From positions 1-26,675 of the forward strand of contig DASSUA010000208.1 in the NCBI GenBank assembly GCA_035707525.1: 26,675 nt of DNA, in the 5' to 3' direction. The notes under the pieces were generated by a model, which worked only from the letters and a program-made list of their open reading frames with translations, searched no databases and was not told the DNA's origin. Shown piece by piece: positions 6,286 to 7,542 of the stretch (position 1 is its first letter; each line of letters begins with the position of its first letter). This DNA is from Pseudonocardiaceae bacterium (lineage in GTDB: Bacteria > Actinomycetota > Actinomycetes > Mycobacteriales > Pseudonocardiaceae). The translations under genes were made by a program, and so were the position numbers.

Positions 6286-7542
6286 GTGACCGATCGCCCC
6301 GAGCCCCGCTTCCTGGCCGCGGACGGCGAGCGGGCCTGGGTCCGGCTGCGCCGCCATCTCGACCGCGCGGACCGGTTCTGGCTGGCCTTCGTGCTGACCA
6401 GCGACGCGCTGGCGGCCGACGTACTGCGGGAACGCGTCGAGGGCAACCGGAGGTTGCGGGCCGAGCCGTTCGTACTGCTCCGACCGCGAAACGCGCAGGA
6501 GTTCACCGACCTGGCCGGGTCGTTCGAGAGGCGGGCGGCGGCCCCACGCGGTTGCACCATGGTGCTGCCGCCGCTGTCCACGACACCGGAGTGGGTCGCG
6601 GCCTGGCGATCCCTGCTCTACGTGCTCAACCATCGCCGGGACGTGCTACGCCGCGCGCTCGGCGGGCTGGTGCTGGTGGCTCCGCCGGCCGTCAAACCGA
6701 TCGCCCAGCGGCAGGCCAGCGACCTGTGGTCGGTGCTGGACCTGCTCATCGAGCTGGGGCGGCAGCCTGTACTGACTGCGCCACCCGACGCCGGCTCGAT
6801 ACCGGTCGGCGAACCGGCCGAGAGGGACCTGGGAATCTCCGGTCTGAGCCTCGGCGCGCCGTCCGATGCCCAGACTGACGAGGCGGCGGTACTGCTGGCC
6901 CTGCCGCCGGAGCAGCTCGCCGGCACCGCCCGCGACAGGGCCACCGACGCCATCCGGGCGGCCCGATCGGCGGGACAGAACCAACTCGCCGCGGTGCTGC
7001 TGCTGAGGCAGGCGGACGGCTACCGGCGGACCGGCGACCACGCGGCCGCGCTGAACCTCGTGCGCAATGCGCTGCTGCTCGACGGCGTCGACGAGACGAC
7101 CACGATCCGGCTGCTCGATGAGGCCGTTGAGCTCGCGTTGGTCAATGTCGAGCTGGCGGAGGCGGCCGGGTACGCGCAGCGGTCCGTGGATCTGAAAGAG
7201 CAGCGAGCCGCTGCGGCGGGTACGCCGGAGTCGTTGCGTGATTTGTCGGTCAGTTTGAACAAGTTGGGTGATGTTGATTGGGCGCGGGGTGATTTGGATG
7301 CCGCGTCGGGTCGGTATGCGCGTGGGCTTGAGTTGGCTGAGCGGTTGGCGGCGTTGTTGGGTACGCCGGGAGCGCTGCGCGACCTTGCTTTCAGCCTGGA
7401 GCGGCTGGCGGCGGTCGAGGCGGAACGCGGTGAGGCCGACCGGGCCGAGACGCTGCTGCGGCGCGCCGCCGAGATCGACGCCACGCTGGACCGGCTGCCG
7501 GGCAGCTCCGGTCCGCGATCGGCCGCATCCGATGGGCTCTAG
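6286..7542 (+). CDS. Tetratricopeptide-repeat protein with an uncharacterised N-terminal alpha/beta domain
   Basis: C-terminal TPR-type repeats (RDLSVSLNKLGDV...GDLDAA...Y; RDLAFSLERLAAV). The N-terminal domain contains LNHRRD...SDLWS. The GTG start overlaps the TGA at 6287-6289. Confidence 0.8.
   Translation: MTDRPEPRFLAADGERAWVRLRRHLDRADRFWLAFVLTSDALAADVLRERVEGNRRLRAEPFVLLRPRNAQEFTDLAGSFERRAAAPRGCTMVLPPLSTTPEWVAAWRSLLYVLNHRRDVLRRALGGLVLVAPPAVKPIAQRQASDLWSVLDLLIELGRQPVLTAPPDAGSIPVGEPAERDLGISGLSLGAPSDAQTDEAAVLLALPPEQLAGTARDRATDAIRAARSAGQNQLAAVLLLRQADGYRRTGDHAAALNLVRNALLLDGVDETTTIRLLDEAVELALVNVELAEAAGYAQRSVDLKEQRAAAAGTPESLRDLSVSLNKLGDVDWARGDLDAASGRYARGLELAERLAALLGTPGALRDLAFSLERLAAVEAERGEADRAETLLRRAAEIDATLDRLPGSSGPRSAASDGL
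7218..7369 (+). repeat. One 141-bp (47-aa) TPR unit bounded by 11-bp direct repeats GGGTACGCCGG (7218-7228, 7359-7369)
   Basis: The protein repeat runs GTPESLRDLS...GTPGALRDLA. The DNA direct repeat was read from the sequence. Confidence 0.85.

Follow-up and report, generated by a model that had tools for sequence, protein, structure and literature searches.

A single-copy TPR repeat unit with intense keto skew in a Pseudonocardiaceae genome as a probable small example of GRINS

How does one repeat unit of a TPR protein come to be written with three C-ending and no A-ending codons among its 47, directly before a capping unit with ordinary codon usage? The question is raised by a gene in the window, by which the whole stretch of DNA analysed here is meant (26.7 kb, contig C208). 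The source genome is a fragmented MAG of 3.86 Mb in 704 contigs, with 72.6% G+C and a completeness of 72%. The gene and the features in and around the skewed unit are as follows.

6286..7542, + strand: gene of the TPR protein, 418 aa, with an N-terminal alpha/beta domain, a disordered linker, and a TPR superhelix
7117..7218, + strand: upstream shoulder of weaker skew on the preceding helical repeat, where 6 of 34 codons end in T and the GC skew rises from 0.19 to 0.35
7218..7228, + strand: left 11-bp direct repeat GGGTACGCCGG, read directly from the sequence, i.e. the Gly-Thr-Pro codons that open the skewed unit
7219..7359, + strand: canonical 47-codon TPR-like repeat unit, matched by the HMM of the unit, whose keto (G+T) skew is intense (G28 T16 C3 A0 at third positions)
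7359..7369, + strand: right 11-bp direct repeat GGGTACGCCGG, the Gly-Thr-Pro opening of the capping unit, at which the skew stops sharply
7363..7497, + strand: C-terminal capping unit, degenerate and ordinary in its codon usage (G24 C16 T3 A2 at third positions)

The skewed unit lies in the frame of ORF 6286-7542 (+) and shows a GC skew and a TA skew of +0.46 each over 7219-7359. The codon counts of the initial annotation were reproduced exactly, down to the Leu codons (TTG x9, CTT x1, neither CTG nor CTC). At homologous places, TTG, CGT, GAT, and AGT of this unit stand against CTG, CGC, GAC, and AGC of the capping unit. In a null model that keeps the amino acids fixed and draws the codons from the usage of this genome, the unit lies beyond all 10^6 draws, which upholds the earlier claim of a codon shift: 16 codons end in T where 2.1+-1.4 are expected (maximum of the draws 11), three end in C where 22.0+-2.9 are expected (minimum 8), and 104 bases are keto bases where 74.9+-3.1 are expected. 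G-ending codons number 28 against ~20 expected, i.e. C is replaced by G besides T. Among the 2538 high-GC3 ORFs of the genome, just two contain a 47-codon window with at least 16 T-ending and at most three C-ending codons, and nowhere else in the 26.7-kb window do the GC and TA skews both exceed 0.25 with the same sign. The two skews co-vary along 7111-7470. The codon skew of 7219-7359 is thus confirmed as real and beyond chance.

This recoding is not wholly synonymous. The GC skew at third positions (GCskew3) amounts to +0.81 compared with +0.25 at codon positions 1 and 2, and the latter positions and the choice of amino acids are shifted too (Trp, Gly, Leu-TTG). The initial annotation had confined the shift to the segment between the two direct repeats; this applies to the core, which is bracketed by the 11-mers, and not to the shoulders, which extend ~100 bp upstream and ~30 bp downstream and bring the total to ~330 bp. 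In the codon alignment, homologous units begin at the same Thr-Pro. A weaker rise of both skews (GC 0.24-0.30, TA 0.20-0.23) is found at 7591-7770, over the start of ORF 7633-8100 located 3' of the TPR gene, for which Pfam gave no match.

The AlphaFold model of the 418-aa protein (pLDDT 83.8 overall, ~90 over residues 194-403) is made up of an alpha/beta domain (residues ~12-156) and paired helices (~194-403), joined by a disordered linker. Residues 194-403 are modelled as a helix-turn-helix superhelix like that of solved TPR domains, and in Foldseek they match kinesin light chain TPRs, including PDB 4y6c, with a probability of 1.00 (TM by target 0.59-0.77). The Pfam matches of the protein are sub-threshold (TPR_12, E=5.7e-6, 26.9 bits at a cut-off of 30.1; TPR_10, 18.2 bits at a cut-off of 27.5). 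Structure matches of the whole model include 'novel STAND NTPase 1' proteins. A separate ORF lies directly 5' of the gene:

4961..6289, + strand: partner gene lying upstream; it encodes a P-loop NTPase (AAA_16/KAP-like) and shares 89% identity with its counterpart at the closest homologous locus, L021

This pair is kept at L021 and at a second homologous locus, L045; no effector domain was seen. The TGA of the NTPase reading frame (6287-6289) overlaps the GTG start of the TPR gene. The NTPase gene of the window carries an in-frame TAG at 6212-6214, where L021 encodes Leu, and the 24 codons that follow are conserved relative to L021 (WYGVHPLLAGEI against WYDVHPLLADEI), up to the TGA at 6287-6289; the TAG is due to a recent nonsense mutation or to an error of sequencing, or else it is a site of read-through. 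The surroundings of the pair differ: at L021 it is followed 3' by a 1399-aa NLR-like protein of SEFIR/TIR, AAA_16, and WD40 parts (L021:4832-7665), unlike the window, where an Orn/DAP decarboxylase gene and a spermidine-synthase-like gene lie 3' of the TPR gene. An RNA or antisense element at the skewed unit was considered and rejected, as Rfam at a permissive E-value returned no match over 6000-8500 and Pfam none on the antisense ORF 7020-7484.

Highly conserved TPR, ANK, and WD repeats were reportedly described by Dyrka et al. in 2014 for fungal and bacterial NLR-like proteins, among them 42-residue TPR-like repeats of Podospora (PDB 4y6c). The TPR family studied here shares with these the near-identical tandem helical repeats placed C-terminally in what may be a STAND-type module, the varying number of units, and the kinesin-light-chain-type TPR fold (including 4y6c); it differs in the period, which is 47 residues here.

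The unit of the window is not alone in its skew. A protein search yielded 62 homologues of 327 to over 700 residues, mostly from Pseudonocardiaceae MAGs. DNA was collected for 27 loci, in which an HMM of the 47-residue period found 112 repeat units; the unit statistics refer to 106 units that are free of N and have at least 40 codons each. One locus, L029 of the unpublished genome G046, is part of the pooled unit statistics and of the tree only and supports no claim. The canonical units of most loci have a GCskew3 of -0.5 to -0.95, with C- and A-ending codons, and those of the window, L041, L051, and L046 are G/T-rich with +0.4 to +0.8. Outside the repeats, these genes range from -0.09 to +0.15, and the terminal capping units are unskewed in all homologues. 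The earlier proposal that the skew is tied to the repeat unit is therefore well founded: across the 27 loci the codon state follows the canonical units and leaves both capping units and non-repeat parts normal.

The two kinds of units are mirror images of each other. In C-type units, C occupies 81% of the four-fold sites, A ends 54% of the Glu, Gln, and Lys codons, and CTC makes up 81% of the Leu codons. G-type units carry G at 68% of the four-fold sites, T at the end of 69% of the two-fold pyrimidine codons, and TTG as every second Leu codon on average. The skew at codon positions 1 and 2 correlates with that at position 3 (r=0.83, 106 units), and the protein changes along with it: Gly, Val, Trp, and Cys together reach 7.9 per G-type unit versus 3.5 per C-type unit, and Pro, Thr, His, and Gln reach 4.0 versus 10.8. 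The window unit is no one-off and has the highest positive value in a skew pattern that runs through the family.

Control of translation was considered as a cause of the codon choice, with rare TTG and T-ending codons slowing ribosomes for the folding of the TPRs or for tuning of expression. TTG (4% of Leu), GAT (10%), and GGT (10%) are indeed rare in this genome. The relatives, however, use the opposite set (CTC, GAC, GGC, and the rare GAA and CAA) at the same structural positions, so that no codon-speed pattern is conserved, and the amino-acid composition is shifted as well. Slowing of ribosomes is hardly credible as the explanation.

Homologues harbor 1-10 units, in line with the earlier suggestion that the unit could be the remnant of a longer array. 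Counts of canonical 47-residue units vary from 1 to at least 9 among orthologues, as seen in the arrays of L022, L023, L025, L026, L031, L032, L048, and L050. The arrays of L024 and L041 contain N-runs and five contigs end inside arrays; with assembly gaps and contig ends in several arrays, database unit counts for this TPR family are unreliable, and the single unit in the window may itself reflect a collapse of copy number by the assembler. Arrays of this sort, intensely skewed and presumably young, are those that assemblers tend to merge.

These assembly problems, together with the 704 contigs of the MAG, also bear on a more radical reading, namely that the skewed patch is an artefact, a chimeric or damaged stretch made of foreign reads or deaminated template. 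Against it, reading frame, TPR fold, and homology run unbroken across the patch, and the independent assemblies of relatives share its T-ending codons at many positions. Random damage would moreover strike non-synonymous C equally, but 19 such C are still present in the unit. An artefactual composition is therefore highly improbable; it is the copy number that may be the artefactual part.

The pattern matches a phenomenon described as GRINS, a rewriting of repeated bacterial genes that is published and mechanistically unexplained. GRINS are duplicated regions of >500 bp and >80% identity in which the GC and TA skews average >0.15 in absolute value (Nivina et al., 2021; PMC8256042). Their skews are strongest at third codon positions, both signs occur on one strand within 1 kb, and the amino acids respond, with Gly, Val, Cys, and Trp increasing under positive and Pro, Thr, His, and Gln under negative skew (PMC8256042). 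The authors note that skewed regions present as one copy might be seeds or relics, consider that GRINS spread by gene conversion, and regard their cause as still unknown (PMC8256042).

We applied the skew threshold (absolute values of GC skew and of TA skew averaging >0.15) in 150-nt windows. Four consecutive windows over the unit show GC skews of 0.31-0.43 and TA skews of 0.35-0.48, the third-position maximum is present with correlated GC and TA skews, and the 106-unit statistics contain the amino-acid shift. Identity and length fall short: the best identity of the unit to other 150-nt windows of the gene is 0.49, and the core measures 141 bp, or ~330 bp with shoulders. The absence of a second copy from the assembly is not proof that none exists, as the 72%-complete genome or a collapsed array could hide one. 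Homologous arrays of 549-1260 bp have identities of 0.82-0.92, and those of L023, L025, L026, L048, and L050 exceed all formal GRINS thresholds, e.g. L050 with 1257 bp, an identity of 0.92, a GC skew of -0.40, and a TA skew of -0.28.

The same genome harbors classical PKS-KS GRINS. PKS ketosynthase and acyltransferase segments with G/T-ending codons were observed at C220:2000-3000, C196:1-900, C123:900-2000, and C64:19700-20400, with GCskew3 up to +1.0; between C220 and C196 the segments share 82-86% identity across 600-870 bp, and several of the segments are located at contig ends. G/T-skewed third positions also occur in other tandem-repeat coding regions, at C415, C347, C76, and C151 (Pro-rich, RPxDSQS-type, and LDxLGERLD-type repeats), so that in this genome the skew goes along with several repeat families that are unrelated. 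A keto-minus-amino scan in 141-nt windows mostly caught apparently non-coding multi-copy elements and was replaced by codon-based scans. Two families of multi-copy elements of ~260-300 bp were seen (e.g. C538:2850-3200 and C223:2500-2800; 85-92% identity), one with 30 and the other with 90 BLAST hits, many of them at contig ends; their GC and TA skews are positive (0.17-0.33) and they look non-coding.

The TPR family thus resembles GRINS in that intense GC and TA skews of the same sign are limited to repeated coding DNA, in the third-position maximum and the same amino-acid enrichments, and in homologues that hold differently recoded versions. It differs in that the patch of the window is single-copy and ~140 bp long, and in that its host is a short-period (141-bp) tandem array, unlike the kb-scale PKS module segments, transposases, and endonucleases of the published cases. 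TPR is mentioned neither in the GRINS paper nor in its searchable citing papers, and literature searches on skewed repeats in general returned nothing relevant. The initial annotation had suspected a general, under-described process in repetitive actinomycete genes; its generality stands, since the pattern is that of GRINS, and "under-described" does not apply to a phenomenon published in 2021 (PMC8256042). We consider the window patch, with a probability of roughly 0.7, to be a GRINS-type region of intense nucleotide skew, which would have arisen through local loss of a base on one strand, filtered by selection and linked to repeats. On this view, the skewed unit is a small single-copy example of GRINS and no new process. 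Two formal thresholds speak against this assignment, as the patch has no second copy and is shorter than 500 bp.

The history of the unit can be followed on the tree of the non-repeat N-domain, in which the window groups with L021 and L045 (support 100/97). This trio is sister to L022 and L023, whose skews are -0.93 and -0.83, and C-type clades follow further out. As the trio is nested inside C-rich clades with skews of -0.7 to -0.9, the positive skew is derived. Over the unit, the DNA of L021 and L045 is 68-72% identical to the window, and the codon alignment reveals a gradient from L021 via L045 to the window, with T-ending codons at many shared positions, e.g. GAT, GGT, TAT, and TTG at several columns. 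Such sharing favors vertical inheritance of the unit.

This record bears on the possibility, raised by the initial annotation, that the unit was imported, i.e. brought in or converted from a diverged and already skewed array, be it foreign or a paralogue within the 28% of the genome that the assembly lacks, with the 11-bp repeats as junctions. The direct repeats do flank the core of the skew, the assembly is just 72% complete, and GRINS are thought to spread via gene conversion (PMC8256042). Yet the 11-mers are the mere Gly-Thr-Pro start of each period, the T-ending codons are common to the sister orthologues, and the relationships of the units mirror the N-domain tree. Nor has a donor come to light: BLAST of 7180-7400 against the assembled genome, the route proposed earlier for finding donor arrays, gave chance matches of at most 30 bp only; the unit HMM run against all six-frame ORFs of this assembly found just the window's own two units; and none of 40 related genomes holds a DNA homologue, all homologues being from other genera. 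Import is very unlikely on this evidence, and the earlier suggestion of it is not sustained.

Polarised with L022 and L023 as outgroup, the window branch carries seven C>T, one A>G, and one A>T change, no G>A, no T>C, and none towards C or A, which agrees with the earlier description of a strand-specific change against C of the coding strand. Nine changes are few, and this counts against an explanation by GRINS and mutation bias. The stem branch of the trio has eight C>G, four A>G, and two C>T changes against one G>C. Its eight C>G transversions, all at third positions, are not a direct product of simple deamination, which likewise weighs against the GRINS and mutation-bias explanation. Two Ala codons are GCC in the outgroup, GCT in the sisters, and GCG in the window, so that at least some of the seeming C>G changes took two steps, first C>T and then T>G. 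The picture of a pure C-to-T change with a preserved protein, as drawn in the initial annotation, is not supported in view of the C>G changes on the stem, the amino-acid shifts, and the mirror-image state of most relatives; because these relatives are C/A-rich, a model of coding-strand deamination alone is insufficient.

The adjacent ATPase gene served as a control in the same three-taxon comparison. The ratio of C>T to T>C is 8:0 in the unit versus 8:23 in the ATPase gene (Fisher p=0.0002), and that of keto to amino changes is 13:2 versus 50:71 (Fisher p=0.0016). As the neighbor is free of such a bias, the bias is local to the unit. There is modest evidence, drawn from these substitution patterns, that the input was loss of cytosine on one strand rather than selection on codons.

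Departures of single units from the consensus of their array agree with this direction. Per site, G>A outnumbers C>T 2.5-fold in C-type arrays, and the ratio is inverted in G-type arrays. The total flux from C in C-type arrays, however, comprises 34 C>G and 65 C>T changes, against nine G>C and five T>C changes back. It runs away from the dominant base, and present-day mutation thus erodes the skew; this stands against the GRINS and mutation-bias explanation, and it follows that the skew must be generated episodically or by selection. Among C-type arrays, skew strength follows inter-unit identity as a trend only (rho=0.55, p=0.08), a further weak point of the same explanation.

A flux that opposes the skew would also fit a non-mutational force that holds it in place. 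Selection might favor such codons because self-folding is impossible for a strand devoid of C (or G), or because skewed low-complexity DNA recombines better; the skew would then be an adaptation that stabilises the array or eases its shuffling. The predicted folding energy (DNA parameters) of the window unit is -16.7 kcal/mol compared with -35.3+-3.3 kcal/mol for synonymous recodings (z=+5.6). C-type units reach z=+3.2 to +4.2, and the capping unit and a segment of the N-domain are ordinary. Weak self-structure is thus reached by both polarities, in keeping with the mixed signs in the TPR family. This measure is non-discriminating, however, as any skew automatically weakens self-pairing. Furthermore, amino acids are pushed too, which would be costly for a purely structural gain, a very strong force per synonymous site would be needed in a single-copy 141-bp unit, and the recombination idea of the GRINS authors was put forward without a test (PMC8256042). 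Selection for unfolded or recombinogenic DNA is possible, if unlikely, as the origin of the skew.

Strand asymmetries are known to follow from single-stranded exposure of DNA, e.g. in the G/T-rich heavy strand of animal mtDNA and in the replication GC skew of bacterial chromosomes. The window branch resembles these in gaining a keto-rich strand by C>T and A>G (seven and one changes). It is unlike them in scale, as the asymmetry covers 141 bp and no replichore, with a skew of ~0.4 versus at most 0.06 in flanks of 15-40 kb, and in that the polarity of the arrays does not consistently track the skew of their flanks. Array skew and GC skew of the 5-kb flanks correlate with r=0.50 (n=20, not independent). 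In flanks of 15-40 kb, values are highest next to the two positive arrays (+0.027 and +0.060), and those of the nine negative arrays lie on both sides of zero. In one complete chromosome, dnaA at a distance of 0.42 Mb puts the gene on the lagging strand, with a skew of +0.013 in the 40-kb flanks. A cause in the replication strand was rejected, as array polarity shows no consistent relation to flank skew.

Two dedicated processes of repeat-associated or targeted change were also rejected. RIP in fungi is discussed with repeated DNA and acts on both strands, whereas the change described here is one-stranded and bacterial; a RIP-like process does not agree with seven C>T and zero G>A changes on the window branch or with a unit that has no A-ending codon. 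Diversity-generating retroelements (DGRs) alter adenines and depend on a reverse transcriptase together with a template repeat. Localised and directional recoding of a ligand-binding repeat or domain is common to DGRs and the window, but the unit has no second copy in the assembly, its differences from relatives lie at C instead of A, and Pfam found no reverse-transcriptase domain in the nine ORFs of 954-12092.

For the preferred reading, a GRINS-type region, a sequence of events can be proposed. One strand of the repeated units, and not of the rest of the gene, would steadily lose one member of the G/C pair at sites free of selection. In most relatives, the coding strand would lose G, which makes codons end in C or A and turns variable residues into Thr, His, Gln, and Pro. 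In the lineage of the window, the polarity appears to have flipped, with C being lost via C>T transitions (GAC>GAT, AGC>AGT, CTG>TTG). At four-fold sites, a second step from T to G, pushed by the GC pressure of the genome, probably followed (GCC>GCT>GCG). Purifying selection on the TPR fold would clear most damaging replacements and leave a mainly synonymous trace. The input may be a one-strand mutational bias, as in single-stranded DNA, that acts during recombination, conversion, or slippage of repeats, and the skewed state would be made in or near episodes of unit copying and then decay. The one unit in the window could be left by contraction of an array or by assembler collapse of near-identical units.

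A bolder version holds that AAA_16-linked TPR arrays are targets of an active, recombination-coupled, strand-specific cytosine-damage process, whose polarity flips between sister lineages and which rewrites silent sites as well as variable residues of the sensor surface. We regard this version as doubtful. If it were true, the process would be a bacterial counterpart of targeted hypermutation that diversifies a ligand-binding repeat, and the 141-bp units would be the most tractable natural system in which to find the enzyme or pathway behind GRINS.

For annotation, the locus advises caution, as the odd codon usage in the window is no sign of foreign DNA and repeat counts from MAG contigs are unreliable. 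For the biology of the family, it widens the GRINS phenomenon to TPR arrays of short period that belong to a pair of P-loop NTPase and TPR genes in Pseudonocardiaceae, with a skew polarity that is reversed between close orthologues, and it provides a polarised spectrum, small but clean, of C>T alone and then of T>G at four-fold sites, for which the neighboring gene is an internal control.
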